From a virus, in the IMG/VR virus record IMGVR_UViG_3300045988_079583, positions 50,885 through 114,884 of that record: a stretch of DNA of 64,000 bases; one strand, given 5' to 3'. A model generated the notes under the pieces. That model saw nothing but the letters and a program-made list of their open reading frames with translations. It was not told the DNA's origin and did no database searches. Positions 7,471 through 51,435 of this stretch are shown in pieces. Made by a program: the position numbers and the translations under genes. Within the stretch, counting starts at the first letter, position 1, and every line of letters begins with the position of its first letter.

Positions 7471-8295
7471 TTATTTCCCAGCTACATCCTTAAATAAGGT
7501 AGGAACAGTACCATAAGTAGGCAGTTTTCCATCCCACTTCTCCACAAAATTCTGTTGTACAATCAATGCAGATAAGGAAGCTGCAATCTTTCTGTTATAC
7601 TCAGCTTCTGCGTCTCCCTTAATTTTCAGAGCCTGAGCTGCTCCCTCTGCTTGGGCTACAGCCTTTTTAGCATTAGCTTCTACAGATTTAACCTCATTTT
7701 CTATCTTAAGAGCATCCTGCACCGCTTTATTTTTAGCATCAATAGCATCTACTAATGTCTTAGGATATTGAAGACCAGAAGTTAGCTGCTCAAGTTGGAA
7801 GTTTTCGGCAAGTAATTCTTTGCTTAATCTATCTTCTATAGATTTCTCAAACTCTTCTCTTTTGCTAACTAATTCATCAGTAGTATAATTATTGAGTTGT
7901 ATACGGAATGCGTTTTTAACATAGTTATATAATGTAGTATTTACGACATCAAGTATATTGTCTTTTCTGTATTTCTTAAATACCTCAGGTGACTTTCCAT
8001 CAACTATCTTAAGAGATATAGTAGGGTCAACAGTAAATGACGAACCATCCTTAGCGTTAATAGAAAAAGCCTCATAGTCCACAGTAAGCACATAGGTTGG
8101 GTATTCATATACAGCTGTGGTAATTGGATTATACCAAACAGCCCCCGTGACCAATGAGATGTCATCTACTCCTTTACCATCACCGTAAAGATTTACCTTG
8201 ATTCCTTCATGTCCAGCGTCTACCCGCTCGTAGCCGCAACTTGACAAACCAAATACTAGAGTTAATACACACAGAAACTTAATTATTGTCTTCAT
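7471..8295 (-). CDS. SPFH/band-7 (prohibitin/stomatin-like) lipoprotein
   Basis: signal peptide + lipobox-like LSSCG; central/C-terminal Ala/Glu/Lys-rich coiled region typical of SPFH proteins. Confidence 0.5.
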   Translation of the reverse strand: MKTIIKFLCVLTLVFGLSSCGYERVDAGHEGIKVNLYGDGKGVDDISLVTGAVWYNPITTAVYEYPTYVLTVDYEAFSINAKDGSSFTVDPTISLKIVDGKSPEVFKKYRKDNILDVVNTTLYNYVKNAFRIQLNNYTTDELVSKREEFEKSIEDRLSKELLAENFQLEQLTSGLQYPKTLVDAIDAKNKAVQDALKIENEVKSVEANAKKAVAQAEGAAQALKIKGDAEAEYNRKIAASLSALIVQQNFVEKWDGKLPTYGTVPTLFKDVAGK

Positions 8296-8732
8296 CTTTT
8301 TTATTTTTAAAATGTTTTTTGAAATGTTTAATAGTCCTATAGACTAGACTAGGAATTGCTATAAATAATAACAATAGTCCTCCAAGGTTTGCAACCCATA
8401 GGGACTGAGATAATAACCACAGTCCCATATTATAGGCTACAAAAACTAATACTATGGCAATAAATGCCTTAATTAGGTTTTTCTCGACCATAAAATAATA
8501 TATTCTCTATTGCTTTTCTTATTATACCACAGTAGTACACTATCCTCCGCAATATCTACATAAGGATCATAGTAGATATATGCAATGAATAGTAAGCATA
8601 TAATTATAAACGCAATCATAAATCACCGAGTTTTTACAGAACCTGGTCTAGTGGTAGCAGCTTGAAAATCCTTCCCTTGCTTATCCCACCATGCTTGCTT
8701 TGATTTCAACCAAGCTACTCTTTTCTTGTACT

Positions 8733-9749
8733 TCATTGCTCAGAAACTATTACAATTCTGTTAAATTCATTATCTCCAAAATCAGTAGTAACTCCACACC
8801 CCTTTACTGTAAGTTTGTCCTCTGGAGCACCATAGTTAACCAGAGCCTTCTTCATAGATTCCGCTCTAGCATTAGCTAATTTGTTGTTGAAGTCGATAGG
8901 TCCCTCTTCAGAAGCATATCCCTCTATAACATATGACTTACCACTATTTGCTATGTAAGCTGCTAATTCAGACACAGCAACATTAGAAGTAGCGGATATT
9001 TCAGAGGAGTTTTGTAAGAATTGGATTTTAGGAGTAAGTAATTCTACCTTAGTAATTTCTATGGTATCTACCTTAACTACCTCAACAGGTTTGCGAGCCA
9101 TAAGTTCATTATTCTTCTCTCTCAATTCATTAATAGACGCATTTAAGCTTTCTATTTCCGAATCATTATAAAGTTTCATAACTGGGAAATTCCCTTTGCT
9201 CGACTTAAATCTGTAAGTAGCTCCTACATAAACATTGATTTCTTGGTTTAATGGAGTAGTTTTAGGAAGTAGCATATATTCTGGGGTTATATTTAACGCC
9301 CACGTATCAGTAATGTTGAAATTACATCTTACTGCACCACGCGCAGATACATTGTTATAGACGTACCCATAGGTATGATACCAACCTGCTCCTATAATCA
9401 ATACTGGTTCAAACAGACGTCTATTGCCTTCATAGCCACATACCAAATTACTAAGATTGGTAGTAACATTAGCCGTAAGGTTGTGTGAATCAAAGAATGT
9501 CTTATTTCCCTGATTCATACCAGCTACCATGTCTAATTCTAGGCCAAAGATAGGTGTAATTTCTTTACCTACAGCAATATTCACCAGAATATCATTAGGT
9601 TCAGCCCAACTTCTCTGATTGTCCCAAACTGTAGTTCCAACATTGCCGGAAATATACCAATTGTCTTTCAAACTTCCGGTTTCTACAACTTGTGCACTTA
9701 CAAACGCACACATTAAACACAAACAAATAATACTAAAAATTTTCTTCAT
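8733..9749 (-). CDS. OmpA-like outer-membrane protein
   Basis: N-terminal signal peptide, beta-strand-rich body, C-terminal OmpA-like peptidoglycan-binding motif (YASEEG...NxxLAxxRAES). Confidence 0.5.
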   Translation of the reverse strand: MKKIFSIICLCLMCAFVSAQVVETGSLKDNWYISGNVGTTVWDNQRSWAEPNDILVNIAVGKEITPIFGLELDMVAGMNQGNKTFFDSHNLTANVTTNLSNLVCGYEGNRRLFEPVLIIGAGWYHTYGYVYNNVSARGAVRCNFNITDTWALNITPEYMLLPKTTPLNQEINVYVGATYRFKSSKGNFPVMKLYNDSEIESLNASINELREKNNELMARKPVEVVKVDTIEITKVELLTPKIQFLQNSSEISATSNVAVSELAAYIANSGKSYVIEGYASEEGPIDFNNKLANARAESMKKALVNYGAPEDKLTVKGCGVTTDFGDNEFNRIVIVSEQ

Positions 9750-10202: not shown

Positions 10203-10623
10203 CTGCTAATTTATCTGCGAGATTATTCATCTGAGAAAAGAAATCAGAATTGGAGGTATGTCCTTTTACCCAACAAAAGTTTATACTAGGACAGAATTTT
10301 TCTGCCTTTTCTAAAACCTTGTCATACAAATTCCATAGTTCCACATTCTTTTTCCTTTTCCATCCTTTAGTAGCACATCCTATAACGTACTGAGAATCTG
10401 AATAGATAGTAAGAGATTTAAGTTGACTGCTTACTGCATTAAGGGCATATATTACTGCTAACAACTCACATTTGTTATTAGTAGTATTAGGAATCATTTT
10501 GCTAAATTCATAGACTTTTTCTCCATCAATTACAAATACGACTCCTACCCCTCCAGTGTTTCTAGACGAACTAAAAGCTCCATCAGTGAAGACTTCTAGA
10601 ACCTTATTGGATTTCTCCATCAC
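10165..10623 (-). CDS. rnhA: ribonuclease HI
   Basis: TDGA...ELLAVIYAL...YSDSQYV...WVKGH...NNLADKLA pattern matching RNase H catalytic motifs. Confidence 0.7.
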   Translation of the reverse strand: MMEKSNKVLEVFTDGAFSSSRNTGGVGVVFVIDGEKVYEFSKMIPNTTNNKCELLAVIYALNAVSSQLKSLTIYSDSQYVIGCATKGWKRKKNVELWNLYDKVLEKAEKFCPSINFCWVKGHTSNSDFFSQMNNLADKLAVEASQEYETKKE

Positions 10624-11008
10624 GAGAATTTACTCTCATGTTAGTTCCTAGTAATATTGCAATCTTTATCAAATCATCATAATTATCACAAATTATATTT
10701 TCTAGAATATAGTTTGCGTAATCCTTAATCTTAACTCTCTTACCTATAGCTCCGTATTTGTCATTTAACCATTTAATTTGAGGATTGAAATCCTCTAACC
10801 CATCGGATAAGTGTCTAAGAGCTTTCCTAATAGGAACTGGAAACCACATTTTCTCCCCTATCCAATCTAAATGACAATATCCAAAAGCAAAAGCTCTACT
10901 CAAATCTCTTTGAATAAACTCGTCTAACTCAAAGTTTCTCTCATGTCTGCCCATTTCCTCAAAATCGTCTCTTAAGTCTAGGCAAAATACTTCGTTAAAC
11001 TCAATCAT
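10604..11008 (-). CDS. hypothetical protein
   Basis: 134-aa ORF. Confidence 0.4.
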   Translation of the reverse strand: MIEFNEVFCLDLRDDFEEMGRHERNFELDEFIQRDLSRAFAFGYCHLDWIGEKMWFPVPIRKALRHLSDGLEDFNPQIKWLNDKYGAIGKRVKIKDYANYILENIICDNYDDLIKIAILLGTNMRVNSRDGEIQ

Positions 11009-11390
11009 CGCTCCAAGATCCTATAATGCAGTCTAACTCTAGTATACCATATCTGTATATAGCCTTAAATGGTCCAGTAGCCATAAAAATCACAGGAGCT
11101 TTGCTAGTTTCCTTAACCTTCATAACACCCTTAAGTAACCTGCTAGCACAGTCTCTAAGTTCACTTATGTCAGGTATTTTATATATACTAGGTGCTACAA
11201 ACATCTTCCAGGAGGACTTATCTATACAATTCCCCTCATCGTCATAGCTTCTTTTGCTCTTTTCCCAATTCATAAATTCGCGAACTCTGTCGAAATCAAA
11301 GTTCCTCATTATGTTCTCGTACTGAACATTTAGAGGAGGGGAATCACTGTAGTTGTTTGTTCTCTTCACTTTCATTTTTGTAACATTCAA
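11001..11390 (-). CDS. hypothetical protein
   Basis: 129-aa ORF. Confidence 0.4.
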   Translation of the reverse strand: MNVTKMKVKRTNNYSDSPPLNVQYENIMRNFDFDRVREFMNWEKSKRSYDDEGNCIDKSSWKMFVAPSIYKIPDISELRDCASRLLKGVMKVKETSKAPVIFMATGPFKAIYRYGILELDCIIGSWSDD

Positions 11391-13220: not shown

Positions 13221-13411
13221 TTTGTTAATTTATCAATTACGTTTACTATAGACTGTTCTCCAGCTATAAAGCCAGACTTATGAGCATTTCTAATAAGTTT
13301 TTTCAAACTTTCTAGCTCTTCTTTTGATTTAAGAGTATTACTATTGTATATCTCTTCAAGTTCCTGTATATATCTTTCCATGACTAAAAATATTTAGTAC
13401 CCGAAGTGGCA

Positions 13412-14047
13412 TTACTCTAGAAGTATGCCGTACTTCCATATGTAGCCATAAGCATGGGTTATTTTATGATTGCAACAATCAGTGATATGTCTTTTGCAAT
13501 TAACAGTTTTTGCTAGACCATTATCTACAAGCCATTGAGCTGCTTCTTCTCTTCCCCAGAAGTGCTATATATAATTGCCAGCCATATCAAATTGATCAAT
13601 TTTCTTAGCAGACCCACCTCTGATTTTAATGTCATGAGCTTTCAATACTTTTCTTACAGTATCATCACTACATCCCACTTTCTCCGCAACTTTTTTGCAA
13701 GTATATCCCATATTGTACAGTTCGATTATCTCTTGATAATCATATAACTATGTTCCGTCACCACCCTTAGTAGCATTATAGCCTTTGGAGCCATAAGTTT
13801 CCAACTCTTTTATCCAATATACCTCTCTTTCTGAAAGTATGTTTTCGTCCTTTACATATTCTAATTCCTCTATTATAAAGTTTTCAACTCCATATTTATT
13901 CATAGCATCATATAATGGACGTTTTTCACATCTTTCTTTTCGAGAATCCTTGCAGTGTTCCTAAAATCTTTCCTATATAGTAAAGAGGGTTTTACCAACG
14001 TATCTTTTATTGTTGATAATATTTGTAATGCAATAGATATATCCCAT
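13412..14047 (-). CDS. GIY-YIG homing endonuclease (I-TevI-like) containing 3 in-frame TAG codons
   Basis: hand translation MGYIYCITNIINNKRYVGKT...REVYWIKEL...GYNATKGG; invisible in ORF track because TAG splits it; terminates at TAA. Confidence 0.7.
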
Positions 14048-14134
14048 ATCATAAACTATTTATAACATTATTAATAATTGATTGAATTAGCTTTACCCAA
14101 AACACACCACGTGGAGGTTTCAATCTTGTGTTTC

Positions 14135-14220
14135 TACCCGAAGTGGGACTCGAACCCACACGGCCCTTTCGGACCATCAGAGCTTAAATCTGACGCGTCT
14201 ACCAATTTCGCCATTCGGGC
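14135..14220 (-). tRNA. tRNA-Leu(UAA), type II
   Basis: cloverleaf by hand: anticodon stem TCAGA/TCTGA, loop TTTAAGC, long variable arm, T-loop TTCGAGT. Confidence 0.8.
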
Positions 14221-14328
14221 ATAATGACAGCTATTCTCACGAACCACTGTCGAGAATAATCCTAATTATTTCTTACTAGATTAGTCTCTAAATTGTTAAA
14301 TTCAAAGTTAAAATCCGTTAAGAAATGT

Positions 14329-14727
14329 TTATCTAGTTCGAACCACATTATAAACCCAAGATATATCGGCATAATCTACATAGATTTGGGAATTTCCATT
14401 ATTCTCAACTCTAAGTCTTAGAAATCCTTTATCATAGTCCTGGTCTAGGACTCTAAACTTCACCTGAGTTCCATTAGAATCATAGGGAGACTTGACTTGC
14501 TCTAAAACTTTGTATATTTGAGTTTCTTGGCTGTAAATTATAATTAGGTCATTGGATAGGTCAAATTTTATATTTATATCAACTGATTCCCAATCAGACC
14601 ATTTTGTCCAACGCCCATTATCAACTACTCTTACAGCAAACTCGGTAGCCTTAAACCATTGGGTTTGAGCTTGGACTGCTCCTACACAGAACAGCCCAAA
14701 CATAATTACAATAAGAATCCGTTTCAT
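14329..14727 (-). CDS. hypothetical secreted protein
   Basis: 132-aa ORF with signal peptide. Confidence 0.45.
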   Translation of the reverse strand: MKRILIVIMFGLFCVGAVQAQTQWFKATEFAVRVVDNGRWTKWSDWESVDINIKFDLSNDLIIIYSQETQIYKVLEQVKSPYDSNGTQVKFRVLDQDYDKGFLRLRVENNGNSQIYVDYADISWVYNVVRTR

Positions 14728-15098
14728 CCCAATTCAGCGAGGCGCTGTCTCAGTTCCTCCTCTGACAAGTTCTCCAACTTCTCAGATTGCTTCTTATCTA
14801 ACAGATCCAGCAATTTAGCCTTCTCAGCAGCCTTTTGCTTGGCATGGTCTCTGTCTGCCTTTTCTTTCAACTTGTCAGTAATGATATCTTTCACAATGTT
14901 GAACTTTAATTCAAGTTCATCATTCTTAGGTGAATCATTACTAATAAAAGATTTTCTAGGACTCTTAGCTAGTTCTTCGTCATAGGAGACAGCTAATTTA
15001 TCCAATACTGGCAGGCTCAAGTCCCACAAATCTTCAACACTCAGATTACCTTTACTAGTTGCGAAGCGCAACTTCATTCTTGATGCTTGTTTAAACAT
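14724..15098 (-). CDS. hypothetical protein
   Basis: 124-aa ORF. Confidence 0.4.
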   Translation of the reverse strand: MFKQASRMKLRFATSKGNLSVEDLWDLSLPVLDKLAVSYDEELAKSPRKSFISNDSPKNDELELKFNIVKDIITDKLKEKADRDHAKQKAAEKAKLLDLLDKKQSEKLENLSEEELRQRLAELG

Positions 15099-15100
15099 AG

Positions 15101-17107
15101 TTAGAAAATGATTTTAAATGATTTATTATCTACTTTTACAATAACGTCGTTACGAGATGTTGAAGAGAACCCAAGTCCACTTAACTGCTCGTCACTATAT
15201 TCAGTTTTAGCCCTAGCTCCCAGAGCTTCAAATACTCTCTTATGGTCTCTCTCAAGGTCAGCTCTTAAGTACTCATTAAAGAACCCTCGAACCGGCTCAG
15301 GATTCTTACATCCATCAACCATAAAGAATAGGTGCTTATTACCTACAGAGTTTCCTTCCCAGTGGTTAGGAGAGAACATTATACAAGAAACCTTTTGGAA
15401 TTTCATAGTATCTATTCCCCACTCGTTTACTGATTTGAAAGATGTAGTCCCTTCTGGAATAGAAGGAGTTAGGCTAATGTTGCCTTGTCTGTCTACTTCA
15501 ATACGAGCAACATCAACGTAGTCACCGTGCGGAATCATCTTGCTATAATTAAACTTATGGATCTCTCCGTTGATTTCAATTTCCATCTCGAAGCCTACGT
15601 CTATACTTTCTCTTCTAGCGAAGTTATGAACACGTACCCTATAGCTCCCAGTTCTTATTCTAGATGGGTCTGTCCAGATAATATTCTCAACAGCATCTCT
15701 AGTTTTACCACTTCCAGCATTCATGTCTACGTCTAGAACGCCACCACTGTACCCGTTCTTATGTCCAAAATAAATTTCACTACCACCAGGCTCAGTTACA
15801 TGAAGATCCAAATCGTCGTAGTTAAACCAGTGTAGAGAACATCTTAGGAATCCATTAACATTACCTCCTGCTGCTTTAACCTTTTCTTTGAATGAATCAG
15901 CTACAGAACCGTTGTAAACCCAAGCAAAGTTATTGTTCCACTTAAACAACTGATTAGCGTCTGGATTCTCAGGAGCAGTTAAAGTAACAAAGTTAGGAAT
16001 GTGCCTATTCTCTACCAAGATAGAGACATCCTTTGCTCCTGGCAATATATCAGTTACAAACTTCTGAGCGGATACTTCAGTAGCTTTAGTAAATTCCTTC
16101 GGGTTTACCATAGCAGTCTCCGTAAGAGCGTCAAACATTCCGCCTTTCATTCTAGCACGAGTATCTCTATTTACGAATAATACATCGTTTACAGAAATAT
16201 CTTCTACATGTGCATGACGTCTAGGAAGGGCATCAGTTAGTCCAAGTTCCTCAACTTTCTTTTGGGCGGCTTCTATTTGCTTCTTGGTAATAAGAGCAGT
16301 AGGTCTCTTGTAGTTAGCAGGAGCCATGATATTCTCATATGCTCTTACAGCCCTTTCCAGTTCTACTCCATTGCTTAGGTCAATAAGCAATGTTCCCATA
16401 GCCGTATTTCTAATCTTAGCTATAGGAGATCTGAAATTCATCCAACAGAAATTTGAAAGATTCTTCCTAGGGGCAGACTCCTTTATTCTCCTAAATTCCT
16501 GCAGCCCCTTCAAGAACTCTTGTCCACGGTAGAGAGAATTATCTTCAATTAGTTCTATTACAGTATTAACTGAATCATCAGTTAATTCCGAGATTGAACG
16601 TTGAAGAACTTCCTTTCTCGCACGAACATCGCCGCGATATCCAGGAGCGGTATCAAAATTGTGAACTCTCTTATTGAATTTGAATTGGTTAGGAATTTGA
16701 ACAAACAGATGTGTCCAAGTTCTAGTAGTTCCATCTGGAAGAAGTTGAATATTATGGTCACATCCATGGAACTCGTTTACATCCTGTATAAAGATGTCAG
16801 CTATTCCAGCTTCCTTAACCAGTTTAGCTAATTCCTTAGCAGTTTTCTCATACCCAGGAGTATGAACGTCATCCCAAAACGTCTTAATTTCGAAGGTTCT
16901 GGGATCAATAGCTACTACCTTACCGTAGTGCCTAATAAATGACTTGCAAGCATTACAGTTATGATCTTGCCTAATATCGTCATCCTCAAACGATAGCAAG
17001 TATCCAGTCCACAGCAGATCCTTGTCTACATTAGCTACGAAAAGAGTGTCTGCAATCATATTTTTGAAAGCAGTCTCTACATCTTTTTTAAAATCTTGAA
17101 AATTCAT
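15101..17107 (-). CDS. large hypothetical protein (668 aa)
   Basis: longest ORF of minus-strand block; no family recognised by eye. Confidence 0.5.
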   Translation of the reverse strand: MNFQDFKKDVETAFKNMIADTLFVANVDKDLLWTGYLLSFEDDDIRQDHNCNACKSFIRHYGKVVAIDPRTFEIKTFWDDVHTPGYEKTAKELAKLVKEAGIADIFIQDVNEFHGCDHNIQLLPDGTTRTWTHLFVQIPNQFKFNKRVHNFDTAPGYRGDVRARKEVLQRSISELTDDSVNTVIELIEDNSLYRGQEFLKGLQEFRRIKESAPRKNLSNFCWMNFRSPIAKIRNTAMGTLLIDLSNGVELERAVRAYENIMAPANYKRPTALITKKQIEAAQKKVEELGLTDALPRRHAHVEDISVNDVLFVNRDTRARMKGGMFDALTETAMVNPKEFTKATEVSAQKFVTDILPGAKDVSILVENRHIPNFVTLTAPENPDANQLFKWNNNFAWVYNGSVADSFKEKVKAAGGNVNGFLRCSLHWFNYDDLDLHVTEPGGSEIYFGHKNGYSGGVLDVDMNAGSGKTRDAVENIIWTDPSRIRTGSYRVRVHNFARRESIDVGFEMEIEINGEIHKFNYSKMIPHGDYVDVARIEVDRQGNISLTPSIPEGTTSFKSVNEWGIDTMKFQKVSCIMFSPNHWEGNSVGNKHLFFMVDGCKNPEPVRGFFNEYLRADLERDHKRVFEALGARAKTEYSDEQLSGLGFSSTSRNDVIVKVDNKSFKIIF

Positions 17108-17233
17108 TTTTGATCTTTATTAAATATTTGATTAACTAAAATCACGCCTATTCCACTTAGGGCAGCAGTTTCAAAATCGAATATCGCTCTAACCCCAAAT
17201 AAAACTACCGCCATAGCAGCTACTGCTCCTAGT

Positions 17234-17470
17234 TTAATTCCCTCTGTTTTCCAGTTCATGTTCCAATTTTTGTAATGTTTCTACACTTTCTTCATAAAAC
17301 TTATCCTCATAAGGTTCACTAATCTTGTAAATAGCAAGAATCTGCTGAAACCTTAGGTAAGGATACTGGTCAATAATTTGTCCGAGTCTGGTTAAGATTT
17401 TGAAATTAGCTTTCTTTCTAAGCTTAATAACTTCTCTATTCTGAGTTTCCATACTTATTGGAAATTTCAA
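17234..17470 (-). CDS. hypothetical protein
   Basis: 78-aa ORF. Confidence 0.35.
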   Translation of the reverse strand: MKFPISMETQNREVIKLRKKANFKILTRLGQIIDQYPYLRFQQILAIYKISEPYEDKFYEESVETLQKLEHELENRGN

Positions 17471-17930
17471 GTTCTAATTTCTTAACCTTACTCTCATAAA
17501 GAGAATCCTCCGCGTACCCTATCCTATCCAAGAATACATAATAATTCTCTTCTGGATTATACTTGTTGAGGATGAACTTCTTATAAGCAAATACACAGCT
17601 TATCCAACTATCAAAGCTAAAGTAAGACATTGTTCTAGAGTTATAAAGTCCGAACAGATTATTCTTATCTTTACATAGCTTTGATTTAAAATTGCCAGAT
17701 TCCAGAACAGCCTGGGCTGTTATAATAGCTGGACTTGGAAAATCGTAATGTACTAAGGTATTATAAAGTACCTCTTCATTTACTTCTTCCAACAAATAAA
17801 ATGGATGCTCTGGCAGCATTACCATTTCATCTTGCTTCTCATTAAAGTGGATAAGGTGATGCAACGAGTATCCCGTTGCAAAACCAAATACTATACTGAT
17901 TAGCAAGATGAATAAAACTTTCTTTTTCAT
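17436..17930 (-). CDS. peptidoglycan hydrolase with glucosaminidase (FlgJ-like) domain, N-terminal signal/anchor
   Basis: AQAVLESGNFKS...NNLFGL matches mannosyl-glycoprotein endo-beta-N-acetylglucosaminidase motif; possible lysin. Confidence 0.5.
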   Translation of the reverse strand: MKKKVLFILLISIVFGFATGYSLHHLIHFNEKQDEMVMLPEHPFYLLEEVNEEVLYNTLVHYDFPSPAIITAQAVLESGNFKSKLCKDKNNLFGLYNSRTMSYFSFDSWISCVFAYKKFILNKYNPEENYYVFLDRIGYAEDSLYESKVKKLELEISNKYGNSE

Positions 17931-18229
17931 ATCTTGATAGATTTCGTAAATTCTGCATCATTGCACAGCTGATATTCAACCTTGTTGAGTTCAGGAATGT
18001 AAACAATGTAGTAATAATCAAAGAACTGATTGTTGTCCTCAAATCCTATAATTATTCCTTCATGTCCCTCGTGCGTTGTGCAGTCTTTATATAAATATTT
18101 AGCTATGTCAGCACGAATCTCATCGTGATTAATAACAGCTTGTAGTGCGGAGATACCATAGTAAGAAGTATTAGTACCTCTTACCTCATGCCCTAGTATA
18201 TCCTTATCGTATGAGGTGGTGATAACCAT
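17927..18229 (-). CDS. hypothetical protein
   Basis: 100-aa ORF. Confidence 0.4.
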   Translation of the reverse strand: MVITTSYDKDILGHEVRGTNTSYYGISALQAVINHDEIRADIAKYLYKDCTTHEGHEGIIIGFEDNNQFFDYYYIVYIPELNKVEYQLCNDAEFTKSIKI

Positions 18230-18494
18230 AATTCTTAATTACAGATTCTATAGTGGAGACGGTCTTATACAAGGATACTATCATACTGACTTTCTTAGAA
18301 ATCTCATTACACATATTTTGGTAATAGTCTCTGTCAGCTTCTATACTTTTTAGTTTATCCAGATCAACAGCTATCATTAGTTTAGAATCCACGCCTTCAA
18401 GATACTTCGCTTCAACAGCTTCTTCTTCCGTATCATACTGACCTAGAATAAACGGGATGCCATTCCGGAACTTAATTAAATAGAACTCCTTCAT
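18204..18494 (-). CDS. hypothetical protein
   Basis: 96-aa ORF. Confidence 0.4.
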   Translation of the reverse strand: MKEFYLIKFRNGIPFILGQYDTEEEAVEAKYLEGVDSKLMIAVDLDKLKSIEADRDYYQNMCNEISKKVSMIVSLYKTVSTIESVIKNYGYHHLIR

Positions 18495-18742
18495 TTTCCA
18501 ATTTTAAAGTACTCTTTTAGTAAATCAATATTTCCTTCCTCTAGATGCCTTATGATAGCTTCTCTTTCTTTTTCCATAAAATGAAGCCGACTTTCTAGAA
18601 TACTTATCTTATGACTAAGATTATTTTCGTATTCCTCTAAAGCATCTACAATGACATTAACTATGGCACAATCCTTCATCGTATTCTTAGTTGTAATGAC
18701 TTTCGTCACCATTATCGTCTCCGATAGGATTTTCCCAACCAT
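18491..18742 (-). CDS. hypothetical protein
   Basis: 83-aa ORF. Confidence 0.4.
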   Translation of the reverse strand: MVGKILSETIMVTKVITTKNTMKDCAIVNVIVDALEEYENNLSHKISILESRLHFMEKEREAIIRHLEEGNIDLLKEYFKIGK

Positions 18743-19178
18743 ACTTTTCGGCGGTAGCCTTAAATAGAGGAAGCCCGTACATAGGATAATTATCCTCGGA
18801 ATAGTCTTCTAGTCCTTCTTCTAGAACTTGGTTCCAGCGTAAAACCACATAGAACATCAAGCTAGCTGATATTCCTCTTTGGTCTAGAGCTTTTTCAAAT
18901 CCAAATTCTACATCTTTTCTAAGTTGAGCTAGGATATTTTCTCTAGTCCATTCTTTAGGCTCCGGATAAGGTTCTTCACTGTCCCATTTGAAACCTATCT
19001 TTTCTAATTGTTCCTTAGTTAAGAACTGGGACAATCTGACGCCAAAGCGATCATCAAGGAATATCTCATAATCCTTGTAATTGTCTAAAATCTCGTTTAA
19101 TGTTTTCATTATAATTCTTTTAAATAAATATTCTGAGGATATTCTCCAAATACTTCCAGAGTCACCGGACAAATCCAA
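18687..19178 (-). CDS. hypothetical protein
   Basis: 163-aa ORF. Confidence 0.4.
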   Translation of the reverse strand: MDLSGDSGSIWRISSEYLFKRIIMKTLNEILDNYKDYEIFLDDRFGVRLSQFLTKEQLEKIGFKWDSEEPYPEPKEWTRENILAQLRKDVEFGFEKALDQRGISASLMFYVVLRWNQVLEEGLEDYSEDNYPMYGLPLFKATAEKYGWENPIGDDNGDESHYN

Positions 19179-19516
19179 ACTCTATCATTATAGCGCCTGC
19201 TCTTACATAAGTAAGTAGCTCCACTCTCGTCTTCTTCTATCTTAGATAAGGTTATCTTAGCTACGGATGGATCCACCATTTGTAGTCTAACAAATTTATT
19301 ATCTATAGAATCAAGAAAACTGTCAGCCCCATTGACCATAGCTAGCTCTCCTGGGTCTCCACAGAAATCTGGCCACCAATAGAACCAGGTTCCTCCAATT
19401 TTTACAAATTCAAATGTCTTTCTCATTAATTCTAATTTATTAAACAAAAAATACCCCAACAACTTTCGCTGCTGGGGTACATAGTAACGCCAACGGGATT
19501 CGAACCCGTATGCCAA
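19109..19516 (-). CDS. hypothetical protein
   Basis: 135-aa ORF; 5' end overlaps tRNA-Glu so true start may be downstream. Confidence 0.35.
   Translation of the reverse strand: MAYGFESRWRYYVPQQRKLLGYFLFNKLELMRKTFEFVKIGGTWFYWWPDFCGDPGELAMVNGADSFLDSIDNKFVRLQMVDPSVAKITLSKIEEDESGATYLCKSRRYNDRVWICPVTLEVFGEYPQNIYLKEL
19447..19480 (-). terminator. rho-independent terminator-like hairpin downstream of tRNA-Glu
   Basis: minus strand CCCCAGCA-GCGAAAGT-TGTTGGGG followed by TATTTTTTGTTT. Confidence 0.4.
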
Positions 19517-19556
19517 GAATGAAAATCTTGTATCCTAACCCTTAGATGATGGCGCT
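19485..19556 (-). tRNA. tRNA-Glu(UUC)
   Basis: anticodon stem CAAGA/TCTTG, loop TTTTCAT; T-loop TTCGAAT. Confidence 0.8.
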
Positions 19557-19563
19557 ATCCTGG

Positions 19564-20238
19564 TTACGCGATAAGACTATAAGCCTCTTGCAATAACTTA
19601 ATAGTTGGGACTTTATTATTGTCTACAACTACTATTTTATAAATGTTCAAGAACTCTATATAAGTCAAAGAGGTACATGTAAGGAAAATTTGCACGTCTT
19701 CATTTATAGAAGCGGAAGACTTAAGTTTTAGATCTATTCTCACCATTTCTGGTAAGCATCCTACTTGAGACGCATCCCAAGTTGACTTAGGTTTTCTAAG
19801 AACTTCTCTCTGTTTTGCAGATAGATATTTGTCCTTAAGAGTACTCTCAATAAGAGTTCCACTGAAAGTTAAACAACCTTCAGCAGGAGTATTGTTACTT
19901 AGTGCTTGTTGTATCTTCTGCACAGCAGAATCCTTAGGTTTTGGGCCCATCTGTACAGGTGTCTTCATTCCTTTTATAAGCTGCAACGATGGAATAAAAT
20001 CTTTAATCTGATTTGCATTCCAAACGAGAAACTTTCCAGGACTATCTTTAATAGTCACAACGTATTTAGTTCCTCCGTTGTAAGGAATAATGACCTGTAG
20101 GTCTGCGTCAGTCATTCTACTCCAATGGTCAGAGACTCTTACCTTAACATTACCTATAACAAAATAGCGAGAAACTGTAGTTTCAGCTTCAATTATTTCA
20201 GAAGCTGTTGCCAATAAATACTTTTCTAATCTAGTCAT
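19564..20238 (-). CDS. hypothetical protein
   Basis: 224-aa ORF. Confidence 0.45.
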   Translation of the reverse strand: MTRLEKYLLATASEIIEAETTVSRYFVIGNVKVRVSDHWSRMTDADLQVIIPYNGGTKYVVTIKDSPGKFLVWNANQIKDFIPSLQLIKGMKTPVQMGPKPKDSAVQKIQQALSNNTPAEGCLTFSGTLIESTLKDKYLSAKQREVLRKPKSTWDASQVGCLPEMVRIDLKLKSSASINEDVQIFLTCTSLTYIEFLNIYKIVVVDNNKVPTIKLLQEAYSLIA

Positions 20239-20266
20239 AAATAATTAATCTAATTAATAGTTAAAG

Positions 20267-20340
20267 ATCCGGATGTGGGGGTCGAACCCACAACCTCGAG
20301 ATTACAAATCACGTGCTCTAGCCAATTGAGCTAATCCGGA
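20267..20340 (-). tRNA. tRNA-Thr(UGU)
   Basis: acceptor TCCGGAT/ATCCGGA, anticodon loop TTTGTAA, T-loop TTCGACC. Confidence 0.7.
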
Positions 20341-20342
20341 AT

Positions 20343-20383
20343 ATAGCCGAGACTGGGGGATTCGAACCCCAACCTTCACAGTG
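20343..20383 (-). other. tRNA 3'-half-like fragment (partial duplicate of tRNA-Asp 3' end)
   Basis: T-arm-like GGGGTTCGAATCCCCC plus TCTCGGC acceptor-like strand, but no D arm or 5' acceptor. Confidence 0.3.
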
Positions 20384-20455
20384 CCGAGAGTACCAGACTC
20401 GAACTGGTGACCTTCGCATAGACAGTGCACTATTCTACCACTGAACTAACCCTCG
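20384..20455 (-). tRNA. tRNA-Asp(GUC)
   Basis: D-arm TAGTTCAGTGGTAGAAT and anticodon loop CTGTCTA resemble E. coli tRNA-Asp; 5' end has unusual C1/G72 or an extra base pair. Confidence 0.65.
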
Positions 20456-20466
20456 GTGTAACTGGA

Positions 20467-21018
20467 TTACTCCAGACTAATTAAACCCTTCTCTAACATA
20501 ATATGGTGATTCGGACATAACCATACTAAATTATTCTCGTTGTTAATCTCCTTAATAAGAGTGTCTTCGTCAAATTCTAATATTCCTTTAAGATGATGTA
20601 CTTCAAGTATTGCATCAAATTCATGATTATGACAATATTGACATACTTTCTCACGTTCGGAACTTTCTAATACTCTACGAGCATTAGTCCTTATTTCTTG
20701 ACATTTAGATGATAAGTACTTCTGCCCAGATGTATAATAACCTAATGTTTTGTTACCAATTCCATTAAGTTCTTCCCAGCAACTACGACACATTTCTGAA
20801 TCTTTATGCTTAGGTTTACCACATCTAGGACATATCTTGTTTTCATCGTGCTTTATCCTACCTCTATTATTGTAAGAAGCAGCACACGAATGACTACAAA
20901 ACTGTTTCTTCCTCACATCTGCGACCCTCTGATTATCTAGTACTTCGATTACCTTACCACATTCCTTACAGTGGTTAGGATTCTCATAATACAATTTAAG
21001 AGATTGTTCTCGATTCAC
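20467..21018 (-). CDS. HNH homing endonuclease (standard code)
   Basis: CQYCHNHEFDAILEVHHL...NLVWLCPNHH HNH motifs; zinc-ribbon-like N-terminus. Confidence 0.65.
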   Translation of the reverse strand: MNREQSLKLYYENPNHCKECGKVIEVLDNQRVADVRKKQFCSHSCAASYNNRGRIKHDENKICPRCGKPKHKDSEMCRSCWEELNGIGNKTLGYYTSGQKYLSSKCQEIRTNARRVLESSEREKVCQYCHNHEFDAILEVHHLKGILEFDEDTLIKEINNENNLVWLCPNHHIMLEKGLISLE

Positions 21019-21155
21019 AGATAAGTTTAATTAATTTTAATGACAGTGTGATATGCAAGCCATTACACCACAGCCTCGAAAATGCAGGTATTTATCTCGT
21101 TACACCTGCGAGTCCGGCAATCCTTTCTTATATACCGCGTGAGCTGGCGGTTTTG

Positions 21156-21229
21156 TAGGGCTAATCAGACTTGAACTGATAACCTCCACATTATCAGTGT
21201 GGTGCTCTAACCAGTTGAGCTATAGCCCT
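21156..21229 (-). tRNA. tRNA-Ile(GAU)
   Basis: anticodon stem CCACA/TGTGG, loop CTGATAA; T-loop TTCAAGT. Confidence 0.75.
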
Positions 21230-21334
21230 ATTTCTCTTTGTATCACCGTGCAAAATGCACATTTGTAAGTATCTTTATATCAGGATACCTCCCGTGCCAG
21301 GAATTGCTACAAAGAATGTGGACCTAACGGAGTT

Positions 21335-21967
21335 TTATTTGTATTTCCATACATAACCTCCACAGGATTTTGCTTTTCCTACACAGCAATCAATTATATG
21401 ATTACTAGCAGAGTGTTTACTCTTTGATTTTCCTACCTCAACTAGCCAATCTGCAGCTTTCAGAGAACCAGGAAATTCCTAAATTTTGTTTCCAGCTTTA
21501 TCATACTGAACAACAATTCTACATTCACGTGCCTATTTATTAGCTCTTCCATCTATTCCATGAGCTTTTAACACCAAATACACAGTTTCCACTGAACAGC
21601 CTATCTTTTCTGATACCTCTTTACATAAATATCCTAAGTTATATAATTCAATAATTTCCTTGTAGTCATACAATATCTTCCCATCACCGCCTTTAGTAGC
21701 ATTATACCCATCTTTGTAGGACTACAATTTGTTTATCCAATATATTTCCCTATCAGATAGGGAGTTATCATCCGCTTCCTCTAGGCATTCAACTATGAAG
21801 TTCTCAACCCCGTACTTATTCATAGCATCGTATAACGGCCTCTTTTCACATCTTTCTTTCTAACTATCTTGACAATGTTCTTTAAAACGCGCTTGTGGGT
21901 TTTGTGTAGTCTTTCCTACATAGCGCTTATTGTTAATCAAGTTTGTAATACAATAAATATATCCCAT
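21335..21967 (-). CDS. GIY-YIG homing endonuclease paralog containing 4 in-frame TAG codons
   Basis: hand translation MGYIYCITNLINNKRYVGKT...DREIYWINKL...GYNATKGG; paralog of 13412-14047; terminates at TAA. Confidence 0.7.
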
Positions 21968-22051
21968 AATTTTCTTTTTTTTATTAAACATTTAGTTTTA
22001 ATCCAGAGTTCACCACGTGGAGGTAGTTTAATACGAACTCCTGGACCTAAC

Positions 22052-22556
22052 GGGAGTCGAACCCGTGTCCAAACAACCCTTGTTACAAGGATAACGTGCG
22101 TCTCATTTTTATTACATCAGCTAGTGAGTTCTAGCATTTAGATAGTTTTCATAGAAGAGCTAGATTCTTTGCAAGCGGACTCATCTAGCACCTTTCCGCT
22201 TAACTACACAACAAACTATCAAACTTAGAGGACCAGGGGTCTCTTCTCTACCACTCCATTTACGTTGGAGAACGCCTATTTGTAACCTATAGATAGGTAA
22301 TGGAGAATTTCAGCTTTACTAACCTTTGGCTTTCAAGTTAAGTACAGTGGCTCTATCATCCTTCTGCTGTACACCTCTTCTGTTTCTAGGTCTTCTCCGT
22401 TAACCCGACTCGATTAATATTTCTATTAATTAGCCACAGCTCACGCTGCCATTCTTACTTCGCTATAAGTAGCAATTATTGTTTTCCTTCGTTTAGAGAG
22501 ATTGCGCTCTACACGTCCTTATAATTCGTAATCGCCTGTCAAATCCAAGTAGGCCC
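22052..22556 (-). ncRNA. candidate tmRNA-like (ssrA-like) structured RNA
   Basis: about 500 nt without ORFs; 3' end is a T-arm (ACGGG-TTCGACT-CCCGT) plus TAGGTCC strand that can pair with GGGCCTA about 500 nt upstream; 5' region TGGGCCUACUUGGAUUUGACAGGCG resembles conserved tmRNA 5' end GGGGCUGAUUCUGGAUUCGACGGG; internal short ORF ends ...VRMAA-TGA. Confidence 0.3.
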
Positions 22557-22856: not shown

Positions 22857-23418
22857 ATAAACACTGTTTTAATATTTCCTTAGTAACTACTCTATCAGCT
22901 TCTCTAGATAGCTTATCCAACTTTTCTAAGTCAAACTCGCTAGACTGGAACTTAAATTGAATCCAAGTTGGTTCACTAGGTCTATAGTCTAAATAAGTCT
23001 CACACTTATCAGTTCCCAAAACCTCATGCACCATAGCTAATATACGTTCACCAGCAGCTTTAGTTTTTACGAATCCAGATAAATCATATCCAACACCTCT
23101 AGAACTCCAGTATTCTCCTTCCTCTGGACGAATGTCTTTGGGTTCCCAATGCCAGGCAGAAACACCGGACCTAGGATGAGCAATACGATGAGCATACTCC
23201 ATTACGGATTCCGAATTTGGATCAGAAGGATTCTCTGGATGAGAGCCATATTGCACTATGCCTTTTCCGTTATCACTTCTTATTTCGAATGTTAGTTTAC
23301 AATGTCTGCAAGTTCCAGAGGTAACTCCTCCGCAAGAGAAACAACCACTGGTCACAGAATCACATCCACAATTAGGACAACCCCATTCCTTAAATTCTGA
23401 GAATAATATAGATAACAT
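22840..23418 (-). CDS. hypothetical Cys-rich protein
   Basis: 192-aa ORF. Confidence 0.45.
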   Translation of the reverse strand: MLSILFSEFKEWGCPNCGCDSVTSGCFSCGGVTSGTCRHCKLTFEIRSDNGKGIVQYGSHPENPSDPNSESVMEYAHRIAHPRSGVSAWHWEPKDIRPEEGEYWSSRGVGYDLSGFVKTKAAGERILAMVHEVLGTDKCETYLDYRPSEPTWIQFKFQSSEFDLEKLDKLSREADRVVTKEILKQCLYGKSN

Positions 23419-23711
23419 TAGTAATTAGGTTTAAATTCTACTTCCTTTAATACAACATACATCTTACCATCCTTCTGTTCGAAACAACCATTAGCTTGTA
23501 AAAAGTTAATGATAAAGTCCATAGGGATATGGTAATTGTCAGTAATAAGCATTCCATTATCAATATGATAACGTTCCTTTCTTTCTAATCTAGTGGGATT
23601 ACCGTTTATAGTAATCTCACCAGAATTTTTATTCTCCTCATCAGGTTTAATTCCTTTTATATAAATGGAATAGCCGGATTCAGCAAGATAGACCTATTGT
23701 ATCACACTCAT
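23418..23711 (-). CDS. hypothetical protein with one in-frame TAG (97 codons)
   Basis: hand translation MSVIQ(TAG)VYLAESGYSIYIKG...; fills otherwise ORF-free gap, ATGA/TAATG overlaps with neighbours. Confidence 0.35.
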
Positions 23712-24244: not shown

Positions 24245-24317
24245 TGGACACGCAGGGACTCGAACCCTATCTTCCGGTGTGCAAAACCAGCGCTCTAGCC
24301 ATTTGAGCTAACGGCCC
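24245..24317 (-). tRNA. tRNA-Ala(UGC)-like; acceptor stem does not pair as read
   Basis: good D arm, anticodon arm CTGGT-TTTGCAC-ACCGG and T arm, but 5' GGGCCGT is not complementary to 3' CGTGTCC; possible pseudogene or my misreading. Confidence 0.45.
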
Positions 24318-25125: not shown

Positions 25126-25276
25126 AATCTAATATTAAAAGTTAAAGTGGGTGCTAGCCGTTTCTATCCCACCATTGCGTACTACAGTGCTAGCTACCGT
25201 CCAAGTTACTCTCTTCCTCACATCAACTTGGAATTTGCTGGATTAATATTACTAGGAGGATTCAGCAAAAAGCTCT

Positions 25277-25558
25277 TTATTTCTCAGCCTGTTTAGAAAT
25301 TTCTAATGCGGCAGTTTCATCACTAATACATTCAGTAGGACATGGAATAATATTTCCGTGAATTTCTCTATGGCAATTGGCGCAGACTAGTATACATTTG
25401 TCCAATTCCTCTTTAACACGTTTCCATGAACGTGTATAACCCTTTGCGGATATTCCGAAGTCCTTTTCTTCTGAATTAATATGGTGAAACTCCAAAGCCC
25501 CAACATATTTGTTATATCCACAACATTGACACTTTCCACCTTTGTAAGCAATAGACAT
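25277..25558 (-). CDS. HNH endonuclease (standard code)
   Basis: CQCCGYNKYVGALEFHHIN...ILVCANCHREIH. Confidence 0.6.
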   Translation of the reverse strand: MSIAYKGGKCQCCGYNKYVGALEFHHINSEEKDFGISAKGYTRSWKRVKEELDKCILVCANCHREIHGNIIPCPTECISDETAALEISKQAEK

Positions 25559-25717
25559 AAGTTTTACTTTATCTCTTCTTCTCTATACTGCCTCTGCTTC
25601 ACATTTAAGACATTTCCATTTGGTTCTATTACCATCTTTTCGCTCTGCAAATTCAGTTTCTCCGTGAATCTAGCAGAACATAACTTCTCTCTTATTCATA
25701 ATATTACTTTTTAATAG

Positions 25718-26113: not shown

Positions 26114-26119
26114 ATATTG

Positions 26120-26193
26120 ACTCGGTGGTCAGATTCGAACTGACGAACTAAGGATTTGCAGTCCTAGCCATTAAACCACTCTGGTACACCGAG
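26120..26193 (-). tRNA. tRNA-Cys(GCA)
   Basis: acceptor CTCGGTG/CACCGAG, anticodon loop CTGCAAA. Confidence 0.65.
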
Positions 26194-26197
26194 ATTG

Positions 26198-26278
26198 TTC
26201 CGATTAAAGGATTTGAACCCCTGACCTCCCGCTGATGTTTTGGATGCGGACGCTCTAACCAGACTGAGCTAAATCGGA
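26198..26278 (-). tRNA. tRNA-like gene with canonical acceptor, D and T arms but a 13-nt anticodon loop (ATCCAAAACATCA); anticodon unassignable
   Basis: acceptor TCCGATT/AATCGGA, D arm GCTC/GAGC, stem TCCGC/GCGGG flanking a 13-nt loop, T arm AGGGG-TTCAAAT-CCTTT. Confidence 0.35.
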
Positions 26279-26472: not shown

Positions 26473-26817
26473 CTACGAATGTAGTAATTCTTGGGCTTCA
26501 ATTTCGCCAATTATTTTAGTAAGTGCGATCTTGAATGGATTTCCCTTGATTTTGTCGAAGAGATTGGCATCGCGTACCTCCTCAACTTTGTCTGGAACAT
26601 TCAATTTTCTTTTACCGTTGTCTACGGTTTTCCATGTGATAACTGTGCAACGCTTCACGTCATAAACGCTGTCGTTGCGGTCAACGAACACCTTGAAGAA
26701 GTTTCTTTTGTGCTTTACTACCTCAACTCTTTTAAAGTTTTTGATAGGTGCGTGCATTTTCAAGTCACATCTTCCATTAGCTAAGAAAATCAATTCTGCC
26801 ATAATAATACTCTGCAT
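26473..26817 (-). CDS. hypothetical protein
   Basis: 114-aa ORF. Confidence 0.4.
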   Translation of the reverse strand: MQSIIMAELIFLANGRCDLKMHAPIKNFKRVEVVKHKRNFFKVFVDRNDSVYDVKRCTVITWKTVDNGKRKLNVPDKVEEVRDANLFDKIKGNPFKIALTKIIGEIEAQELLHS

Positions 26818-26939
26818 AGTCAGAGATTCAAAGTTAAACTATGTTAATTCCAGTCTTTCGTCTGGCACTCCACCTCGTTTTAACCAATAGCTACTGTCCT
26901 TCACTATCTGAGCTAAGCTCTAAACTGGGATAAAGGTAT

Positions 26940-27326
26940 TTATTCTATAAATATAAAAGAAGTTCCGTATCTGTCCAAGAATGATTCCAGATATTCAGTC
27001 ATTTCATTGTTAGTTTCGAAATACAGAACCTCATCACATTCATCGCTTAATTCAAAAACTATGTGAGGTTTAGTATATACTACCCCATTTTTAAAGAAGT
27101 CCTTCTTGGGGTCTAATTCTGCGATCATTTCTTCTTCAGAAAAACACTCTCCAAGATACAGACAATTGTACCAGTAGTCGTGGTGCCTCTTCCAGAAAAA
27201 GAAAACAGAGGAATCATACACATAGTGTTCCCAATACCTATTAGTTCTAGTTTTATAAGCTAAAACTCTCCTAACCAAATTTCCATTAATATACGTATCC
27301 ATAATTAATCCCAATATTCTGGACAA
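26940..27326 (-). CDS. hypothetical protein
   Basis: 128-aa ORF. Confidence 0.4.
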   Translation of the reverse strand: MSRILGLIMDTYINGNLVRRVLAYKTRTNRYWEHYVYDSSVFFFWKRHHDYWYNCLYLGECFSEEEMIAELDPKKDFFKNGVVYTKPHIVFELSDECDEVLYFETNNEMTEYLESFLDRYGTSFIFIE

Positions 27327-27739: not shown

Positions 27740-27754
27740 ATAAGATTGGTGTAG

Positions 27755-28308: not shown

Positions 28309-28344
28309 GTGATGGGAGACTAGCTTCTAATTCTTCCTGTGTCA

Positions 28345-45316: not shown

Positions 45317-45333
45317 CTCCAAAATTAATAGCT

Positions 45334-50839: not shown

Positions 50840-50866
50840 GAAAAGATTGTCGAATGTTAATGATTA

Positions 50867-51433: not shown

Positions 51434-51435
51434 TT

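Follow-up and report, generated by a model that had tools for sequence, protein, structure and literature searches.

Closest described systems

The idea that in-frame stop codons hold back a homing endonuclease is not new, and a precedent exists for TGA-recoded phages. In the Agate phages, in-frame stops were proposed to block a recoded intron endonuclease until late in infection (Borges et al., bioRxiv 10.1101/2021.08.26.457843, section 8). Here, we describe four homing endonuclease genes of the GIY-YIG and HNH families which contain in-frame TAG codons. They are located in a stretch of viral DNA of 64,000 nucleotides (nt), positions 50,885 to 114,884 of the IMG/VR record IMGVR_UViG_3300045988_079583, which is referred to as the window in the following. 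As in the Agate phages, the endonuclease genes lie in an otherwise standard-code, presumably early region and prefer the reassigned stop codon. The Agate case is a reassignment of TGA to Trp and concerns a single intron-encoded enzyme within an early gene, whereas in the window TAG appears to be read as glutamine (Gln) and four free-standing genes of two families occupy a transfer RNA (tRNA) array. Compared with the Agate case, empty sites are demonstrated here and the GIY-YIG genes have a ribozyme leader in place of an intron.

The free-standing GIY-YIG gene segB of phage T4 is likewise located among phage tRNA genes (PMC2330249). SegB drives the preferential inheritance of the tRNA region in co-infection, and neighbouring tRNA sequence is co-converted, which can be compared with an island of 98-100% identity described below. 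T4 uses the standard code, and neither a ribozyme nor a tRNA-end repeat is described for segB. The similarity of the genes in the window to SegB concerns the catalytic domain only; a Pfam match of the SegE type stayed below the cut-off. I-TevI, also from T4, shares the layout of GIY-YIG domain, linker and helix-turn-helix (HTH) and gave the best match among solved structures, but is intron-encoded, unlike the genes described here. Production of I-TevI is held to late infection at the level of translation. This delay is caused by an RNA hairpin over the ribosome-binding site together with a late promoter, and not by stop-codon suppression.

Theta ribozymes, small self-cleaving RNAs of the hepatitis delta virus (HDV)-like type, were found in gut phages of Bacteroidota and are enriched in genomes using genetic code 15 (Kienbeck et al. 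2024, PMC10879173). The same ribozyme occurs beside tRNAs of many isotypes, and the authors read it as a device for tRNA maturation and for the code switch. A text search of this article found no mention of endonuclease, homing or transfer-messenger RNA (tmRNA). The leaders of both GIY-YIG genes in the window share the minimal HDV-like fold, and their predicted cleavage site is no more than 1 nt away from where the tRNA or tmRNA ends. Unlike the published cases, both copies lead mobile GIY-YIG cassettes and one of them follows a tmRNA. A functional analogy, and no more than that, is seen in the R2 retrotransposon, which lacks long terminal repeats: it is a selfish element in a highly transcribed structural-RNA gene with a ribozyme at its own 5' end. 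The HDV-like ribozyme of R2 reportedly frees the message from the ribosomal RNA co-transcript. R2 is a eukaryotic retroelement of the 28S ribosomal DNA which moves through RNA, whereas the cassettes described here are DNA-level insertions in a phage tRNA array.

In-frame TAG codons in four endonuclease genes

Both GIY-YIG genes are located on the minus strand, gene 1 at 13412-14047 (211 amino acids, aa) and gene 2 at 21335-21967 (210 aa). Each contains four in-frame TAGs (codons 25, 29, 100 and 161 in gene 1; codons 36, 82, 145 and 163 in gene 2) and ends with TAA. An earlier note on this DNA, made from the sequence alone, had described these features correctly, as well as the eight TAGs of HNH gene 1 (27789-28259, minus strand, 156 aa, stop TAA). 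HNH gene 2 (25277-25699, minus strand, 140 aa) had been overlooked; it begins 17 nt past tRNA-Asn and has TAG at codons 10 and 39. The in-frame TAG reported for the small gene at 23418-23711 (minus strand, stop TAA) is also present, as a single TAG at codon 6. This gene is conserved and does not encode an endonuclease. There is no internal TAA or TGA in the two GIY-YIG genes, HNH gene 1 or the small gene.

With TAG translated as Gln, the GIY-YIG genes matched Pfam PF01541 with E-values of 2e-11 and 3e-13 (44.4 and 50.5 bits; cut-off 22.6), and their products are 63% identical. Membership in the family holds only if TAG is read as sense. The match to I-TevI concerns its catalytic domain (1mk0/1ln0, E 5e-9) and covers residues 4-93, including the GIY, YVG and GYN motifs, in agreement with the earlier description of two I-TevI-like paralogs. 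In gene 1, the GIY-YIG domain (residues 1-91) is followed by an HTH at about 103-137, where HTH_28 and HTH_7 exceeded their cut-offs; the corresponding matches in gene 2 were weaker. Neither a NUMOD module nor a zinc-finger linker was detected in the two GIY-YIG genes. The profile search with table 15 that the earlier note had suggested hence gave significant GIY-YIG matches, whereas no Nuc-assoc/NUMOD module was detected and the DNA-binding part is an HTH instead. PHROGs annotates both genes as homing endonucleases, with phrog_314 aligned over residues 1-206. The HNH genes reached 27.1 and 22.6 bits with PF01844 (cut-off 21.4). HNH gene 1 matched phrog_10822 over its full length (1-155, E 8e-47) across all eight TAGs, and phrog_2255 was matched among the HNH genes with an E-value of 3e-32. 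These results support the assignment of the genes as real I-TevI/SegB-like GIY-YIG and HNH endonucleases.

As reference for code-15 usage, the late structural and packaging block on the plus strand (49625-63420) was used, whose genes contain 2-28 in-frame TAGs each. TAG makes up 18 of the 29 Gln codons in the endonuclease genes (62%) and 130 of 243 in nine late genes (53%), but none of 175 in 24 minus-strand neighbours, which are free of TAG as the earlier note had stated. The share in the endonuclease genes differs strongly from that of the neighbours (Fisher's test, p 1.3e-18) and is similar to that of the late genes (p 0.43). Among 47 unique members of the GIY-YIG family, no residue is more enriched in the columns with TAG than Gln (3.3-fold), and one nearly invariant column shows Q in 25 sequences and TAG in 7. 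Three TAGs of HNH gene 1 fall on near-invariant Gln residues of its family (HFKGQGWN, SLQLHH and NCHSQTEN). At codon 6 of the small gene 23418-23711, every relative examined has CAA or CAG and only the window has TAG, a fresh change from Gln to TAG in a non-endonuclease gene of the standard-code block.

The genes are also under strong purifying selection. Comparison of GIY-YIG gene 2 with its orthologue in locus L032 (comparison loci are given as L numbers) revealed 26 synonymous and 2 non-synonymous changes, corresponding to a ratio of non-synonymous to synonymous divergence (dN/dS) of 0.016, and all TAGs are kept. For the orthologues of gene 1, dN/dS is 0.1-0.25 and all four TAGs are kept as well. 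Full-length copies of the family in these phages contain 1-6 TAGs, and distant homologues in other contigs contain none. On this comparative evidence we regard the TAGs as Gln sense codons in functional genes. In other crAss-like phages, published peptide data support Gln at TAG (PMC9523058). If the TAGs are sense codons, translation of the genes must depend on a suppressor tRNA. Two tRNA genes with the amber anticodon CUA were found between the minus-strand and the plus-strand block, one at 42782-42853 (minus strand), which starts with U1 as tRNA-Gln does, and one at 45245-45317 (plus strand), whose acceptor and D arm are closely similar to the phage tRNA-Gln(UUG) at 30390-30462. This resemblance suggests that the phage encodes a Gln-type suppressor tRNA.

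Homing endonuclease genes often degenerate, and truncated copies were found in relatives (L008, L026, L033, L046, L050, L057, L058 and L080), so the TAGs could also be nonsense mutations in dead genes. However, all 18 interruptions are TAG, for which the chance among random in-frame stops is about 1.5e-10, and the genes contain no frameshifts. The low dN/dS values with conserved TAGs and the coincidence of TAGs with conserved Gln positions also argue against decay. The copies that are truly decayed are broken by TGA or frameshifts instead, and no intact copy of the family contains TAA or TGA. We therefore reject the pseudogene reading as highly improbable. Still less credible is that the TAGs are true stops bounding several short genes. 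This finds support only in a standard-code reading, in which the fragments would be 4-70 aa long and mostly without a start codon, and it was rejected because the profiles run unbroken over the TAGs (GIY-YIG 1-91, phrog_314 1-206, phrog_10822 1-155). The earlier note had named true stops, or a lack of GIY-YIG similarity under table 15, as observations that would contradict it, and both turned out in its favour.

The class of TAG-dependent genes proposed in that note is maintained in part: it comprises the four endonuclease genes, but two HNH-like genes of the same block are free of TAG. One is an HNH endonuclease gene with only 2 Gln codons (33760-34176, minus strand). The other is an open reading frame (ORF) with weak similarity to HNH proteins (20467-21018, minus strand) and 6 Gln codons. 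The ATG of the former lies 1 nt past the 3' end of tRNA-Trp, so that processing of the tRNA would leave the message of this gene with practically no leader. Most of the other TAG-containing ORFs on the minus strand, considered as candidates for recoded genes, are TAG-free genes with TAGs upstream of their true start (DUF5662 at 6353-6967, SPFH at 7471-8460, and the ORFs at 10604-11050, 3572-4393 and 27305-27886). Such upstream TAGs also account for most "split" non-endonuclease ORFs in relatives.

Insertion sites and mobility

Three collinear relatives from one Mexican faecal study, MT836666 (L001), MT837398 and MT838061, show 80-88% identity to the window. MT836666 has an empty site for GIY-YIG gene 2, where the 3' end of the tmRNA is joined directly to the sequence following the gene. 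In the insertion in the window (21319-22041, minus strand), the ribozyme is followed by an AU-rich leader, by gene 2, by AACT and by 12 nt that repeat the tmRNA end. The insertions with HNH gene 1 and HNH gene 2 are missing at precise junctions in L002/L003; that of HNH gene 2 extends over about 25136-25712 and is absent from MT837398. GIY-YIG gene 1 and the adjacent tRNA-Leu(UAA) form an island of 98-100% identity (13400-14200, compared with 17470-18290 of MT836666), whereas the flanks are 55-85% identical. This pattern indicates that the cassette was recently passed from one diverged genome to another and that co-conversion took place. The earlier note had offered exchange among related recoded phages as an alternative, and this is supported by the island and by the insertions absent from relatives. 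Across IMG/VR, members of the GIY-YIG family follow tRNAs of many identities at a distance of 15-100 nt, and gene and tRNA are always on the same strand. Judged by these comparisons, the endonuclease genes are free-standing mobile elements which moved recently.

The ends of the GIY-YIG cassettes are marked by repeats. The tRNA-Leu(UAA) gene (14135-14221, minus strand) ends with the 12 nt CCACTTCGGGTA (14146-14135). A direct repeat of this 3' end is found on the minus strand at 13398-13409, 2 nt past the stop codon of GIY-YIG gene 1, and marks the right-hand boundary of cassette 1. Cassette 2 is inserted at the 3' end of a phage tmRNA gene (22042-22556, minus strand; Rfam 56.3 bits; tag peptide VQQKDDRATVLNLKAKG according to ARAGORN), and the last 12 nt of the tmRNA, CCGTTAGGTCCA, are found at 22053-22042 and again at 21330-21319. 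In the lineage of the window, 9 of 13 ribozyme cassettes carry, 0-4 nt past the stop codon, a repeat of the final 12-16 nt of the tRNA or tmRNA located upstream (beyond the window: L012, L014, L035, L041, L042 and L045). The order in the GIY-YIG cassettes is theta ribozyme at the tRNA or tmRNA 3' end, AU-rich leader of about 30 nt, endonuclease gene and 12-16-nt repeat. The repeat looks like a target-site duplication, which is not predicted by the usual homing mechanism. As far as we could find, a composite cassette of theta ribozyme, amber-dependent GIY-YIG gene and tRNA-end repeat has not been described.

Theta ribozymes as leaders of the GIY-YIG cassettes

The earlier note was silent on ribozymes; both GIY-YIG leaders are now read as theta ribozymes. 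They have the invariant sequence ACCTCCACGTGGT in common, which occurs in two exact copies in the window and, with two mismatches, at a third site within an ORF (0.13 expected). Comparison with paralogues revealed two mutually crossing helices flanking ACCTCCACGTGGT. Ribozyme 1 (14080-14134, minus strand) matched Rfam RF02682 with 28.7 bits (E 4.9e-4) and shows covariation in P1 and P2. Its G1 is position 14134, right after the discriminator base of tRNA-Leu. P1 is formed by 14134-14128 with 14105-14099 and P2 by 14125-14119 with 14086-14080, and the P3/L3 core ACCUCCACGUGGU matches the Rfam consensus aCCUCUaCGUGGu. Ribozyme 2 (21982-22041, minus strand), supported by a descriptor scan, matched the same model with 25.0 bits (E 3.6e-3), and its G1 at 22041 directly follows the tmRNA 3' end. 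It sits within the insertion that the relative lacks and is therefore part of the mobile cassette. The descriptor scan of the window returned only these two ribozymes and none at either suppressor tRNA. A resemblance of CCAGAGAAACAC to the hairpin ribozyme was dismissed, as this stretch is the covarying P1 strand.

For the analysis of covariation, 16 leaders were registered by hand and padded with N; a MAFFT alignment was out of register and was not used. In this hand-made alignment, which favours the structure, the 15 pairs of the P1/P2 pseudoknot were paired in 220 of 220 cells. Fourteen of the 15 pairs have changed on both sides, and the covariation was 1.02 compared with 0.25 in shuffles. 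When the partner strand was slid by 1-3 columns as a control, pairing fell to 33-50%. The outer P3 pair covaries as well (A-U or G-C), and 15 of the 16 sequences contain C[U/C/A]AA ahead of the 3' strand of P2, which would provide the catalytic C at the start of J4/2. Both leaders also matched the full HDV-F-prausnitzii model in a permissive Rfam run. The scan of the whole window at gathering thresholds flagged no HDV-like ribozyme, and it counts against the assignment that both matches (28.7 and 25.0 bits) are below the gathering score of RF02682, which is 44. The low scores coincide with a P4 of 6 nt compared with 19, the core being almost identical. From fold, covariation and position, we take both leaders to be theta ribozymes of the minimal HDV-like kind, following the definition of Kienbeck et al. 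(PMC10879173), with predicted self-cleavage.

In loci centred on homing endonuclease genes, 22 of 25 ribozyme-bearing tRNAs are followed by an endonuclease gene within 130 nt; where the ribozyme is missing, this holds for 16 of 393 tRNAs (p 2e-23). Of the three ribozyme-bearing tRNAs in these loci that lack a downstream endonuclease, at least two are followed by decayed copies. Loci with such ribozyme leaders beyond the window are L004-L064 and L132-L248. A further scan was made with the exact 14-mer core in IMG/VR, so that loci were not chosen by endonuclease. Of the sites found, 54 fold as ribozymes and 30 of these abut a tRNA. Here the association was weaker, which speaks against a general tie: an endonuclease gene followed only 13 of the 30 tRNA-adjacent ribozymes (about 43%; 11 GIY-YIG and 2 HNH_3), and five ribozymes located after suppressor tRNAs had none downstream. 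The ribozyme is not exclusively a component of the cassette; the link is frequent and not universal, and a ribozyme always tied to an endonuclease is ruled out. A full-text search of a limited literature found no paper joining ribozyme and homing-endonuclease terms in a phage context, and as far as we could find, this link has not been described in the literature searched.

Insertion of HNH gene 1 into a tRNA-Cys gene

HNH gene 1 interrupts a tRNA-Cys(GCA) gene (27754-28308, minus strand), whose anticodon loop CTGCAAA (7 nt) is swapped for an insert of 486 nt (28276-27791). The HNH ORF takes up 471 nt of the insert, and both tRNA halves are unchanged. Relatives have an intact tRNA-Cys(GCA) of 75 nt at this site. 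The same split arrangement was identified elsewhere (IMG/VR contig 3300045988_059915; L081, 1452-2015). A second tRNA-Cys gene, which is intact, is located at 26119-26193. No group I intron core was found around HNH gene 1 (Intron_gpI at gathering, and with E up to 1 over 27650-28400). With no ribozyme core and 471 of 486 nt taken up by the ORF, the gene was not classified as group I intron-encoded. The insertion may have done no more than disrupt a tRNA that is redundant. A more speculative possibility is that the split tRNA-Cys represents a message on a tRNA scaffold.

Homologues of HNH gene 1 in other phages are found in inserts of 680-880 nt at the canonical U/AA position of tRNA-Leu(UAA) (L082, L084, L088, L093, L094, L096, L100-L103 and L108). 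These inserts end with G and look like group I introns; the Rfam group I model stayed below threshold on the loci tested. In L088, the HNH ORF is located on the opposite strand of the tRNA-Leu insert.

Amber dependence and proposed timing of endonuclease expression

We propose that the GIY-YIG cassette would lack a promoter of its own and be co-transcribed with the tRNA array. Cleavage by the ribozyme 5' of G1 would release the endonuclease message and simultaneously make the tRNA 3' end. Before the suppressor tRNA is available, ribosomes would halt at the first TAG, ahead of a complete catalytic domain. Among 33 unique GIY-YIG sequences containing TAG, the first TAG comes no later than codon 36 in 31. 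Active nuclease would be expected only once the cell has undergone the code switch, with the timing set at translation by the amber codons. We infer co-transcription, self-cleavage, late timing and a possible selective benefit of the delay from this arrangement. A scan for sigma-70 promoters and terminators gave 56 sites with 51.5 expected and was uninformative; other promoters are used by these phages and their hosts.

The explanation that we consider quite probable as a whole is that the phage reads TAG as Gln in its late genes by means of its own tRNA(CUA) and keeps the accessory and tRNA block free of TAG. The endonucleases would then be mobile and selected genes written in the late dialect, amber-dependent, and in the case of the GIY-YIG genes organized as ribozyme-led cassettes. 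Of the suppressor-gated translation suggested in the earlier note, the amber dependence is supported, as the TAGs behave as sense codons, but the use of TAG as a selected delay device is not established. Adaptive gating is plausible. A suggestive indication is the distribution of TAG in the GIY-YIG family, where TAG accounts for 59% of the Gln codons in the N-terminal third and for 21% and 31% in the following thirds (shared ancestry uncorrected). In addition, TAG positions are held across orthologues despite a synonymous divergence (dS) of up to 0.25.

Several observations weigh against a gating role. Counted by alignment column, TAG sites show no excess in the N-terminal third, and the late genes show a milder 5' gradient of TAG themselves. 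The TAG frequency only reaches the level of the late genes, as a neutral equilibrium predicts. HNH homologues range from 0 to 8 TAGs, those elsewhere having 0-2, and two HNH-like genes of the block are TAG-free, and therefore amber dependence is no fixed property of endonucleases in these phages. As the suppressor tRNA at 42782-42853 shares the strand of the array and precedes it on the upstream side, suppression could start early and any delay could be short. The label "early" for the TAG-free block is derived from codon usage and from published related phages only. Codon usage had been suggested as a check before: for Gln, the endonuclease genes match the late genes and not their neighbours, but their usage of other codons is intermediate between two overlapping distributions and uninformative.

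Passive accumulation would account for much of this pattern. Dispensable selfish genes would drift from CAG to TAG up to the level of the late genes, as nothing selects for translation of an endonuclease before the code switch, and amber dependence would be real but a by-product. The equal TAG share in endonuclease and late genes, the variable TAG number among homologues and the missing column-level excess agree with this, as does the small core gene 23418-23711, which encodes no endonuclease and gained its TAG in this genome alone. The pattern fits relaxed constraint as well as gating. The N-terminal position of the first TAG and the bias between thirds, both uncorrected for ancestry, are less expected under drift, and so is the conservation of TAG positions across orthologues; we give passive accumulation somewhat less than an even chance. 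The TAGs could also be a footprint of horizontal transfer, recording circulation among TAG-recoded phages or an origin in a recoded region, with no bearing on timing. The identity island around GIY-YIG gene 1 and its tRNA and the presence or absence of insertions in relatives are in line with this, as are family members free of TAG in other, probably standard-code contigs (L066-L079). Transfer, however, explains the origin of the TAGs and not their persistence at conserved positions under strong purifying selection, and it is compatible with suppressor dependence and not an alternative to it. As an account of the TAGs we regard it as rather unlikely.

A broader reading, which we put forward only tentatively and consider doubtful, is that theta ribozymes originated as, and in a large fraction of instances are, the 5' module of a mobile cassette of ribozyme and homing endonuclease that parasitises phage tRNA arrays, and not a device for tRNA maturation. 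Such a cassette would insert exactly at the 3' end of a tRNA or tmRNA, duplicate its last 12-16 nt and borrow the transcription of the array. Self-cleavage would free the message and restore a usable tRNA end, and translation would be licensed after the amber code switch. The HNH gene within tRNA-Cys could be a second solution, in which the tRNA body serves as a scaffold for processing or stability of the message.

The locus combines empty sites with strong purifying selection and involves several gene families, and it provides a clear TAG-code example for the published gating idea. It lends weight to the view that selfish passengers of recoded phages may also be scheduled by the code switch. 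Standard-code gene callers shatter these genes, and mobile elements are consequently under-annotated in recoded phages. If ribozymes often lead endonuclease cassettes, their spread over many tRNA isotypes would be explained by mobility, and the part in tRNA maturation and recoding that was proposed for them would have to be examined again. It would also be a phage parallel to the escape of R2 from a structural-RNA transcript by self-cleavage.

Genome context and further features of the window

The window has a GC content of 35.9% and is divided into two blocks. The minus-strand block extends from position 1 to about 47000 and contains 26 tRNA genes, the tmRNA gene and accessory genes. The late block on the plus strand includes the genes for the large terminase subunit (TerL, 51436-53796), the portal protein (53994-56168) and a tail protein (61600-63420). 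With crAss-like terminases, TerL shares 26% identity; the top matches are unannotated gut phages. Related contigs have a size of 175-193 kb; the genes for RNA polymerase and capsid fall outside the window. For the Zeta group of crAss-like phages, recoding was reported mainly in late genes (Yutin et al., PMC7886860). Characters of this group are a crAss-type TerL, a genome size of 145-192 kb, late-gene recoding and many tRNAs and mobile elements. The distant similarity of TerL and the size of the related contigs would fit, and the source is a large gut phage, probably of the Zeta group (Crassvirales). A megablast search of the late block against GenBank phages gave no match.

Auxiliary genes of the TAG-free block (3572-6339, 7471-8460, 8733-9749 and 31011-32984, all on the minus strand) encode a NAMPT/NAPRTase-family enzyme, an OmpA-like protein and two SPFH/Band-7 proteins. 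Two tRNA-like genes on the minus strand, at 24245-24317 and 26198-26278, were called by Rfam and missed by ARAGORN with default settings; the latter is a tRNA-Trp with a 6-nt intron in the intron mode of ARAGORN. A RAGATH-14 RNA (42882-43054, minus strand; Rfam 166 bits, above gathering) is located 28 nt upstream of the minus-strand suppressor tRNA. To our knowledge, no function is known for RAGATH-14.

In two relatives (L014, 1900-3090; L045, 2103-3293), the tRNA region contains an ORF of 396 aa with seven in-frame TAGs. In L045 it is near a suppressor tRNA, and phmmer found no match between this ORF and the four endonuclease queries. Six otherwise TAG-free genes of the minus strand (17436-17930, 26473-26817, 30623-30847, 39677-39916, 41609-42100 and 42270-42494) have a TAG just 1-7 codons ahead of TAA or TGA; in one gene, TAGTAG precedes the TGA by 20 codons. 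Such a near-terminal TAG may act as the stop early in infection and allow a short read-through tail after suppression begins. Upstream of one of these genes (26473-26817), the stretch 26818-26994 (minus strand) is conserved in relatives (L009, L015, L017 and L020). In frame it reads ...NTFIPVqSLAQ.VK.SSYWLKRGGVPDERLELTqFNFES... and contains two TAGs which are conserved. A recoded N-terminal extension would be one possible reading of this stretch, a conserved RNA another.

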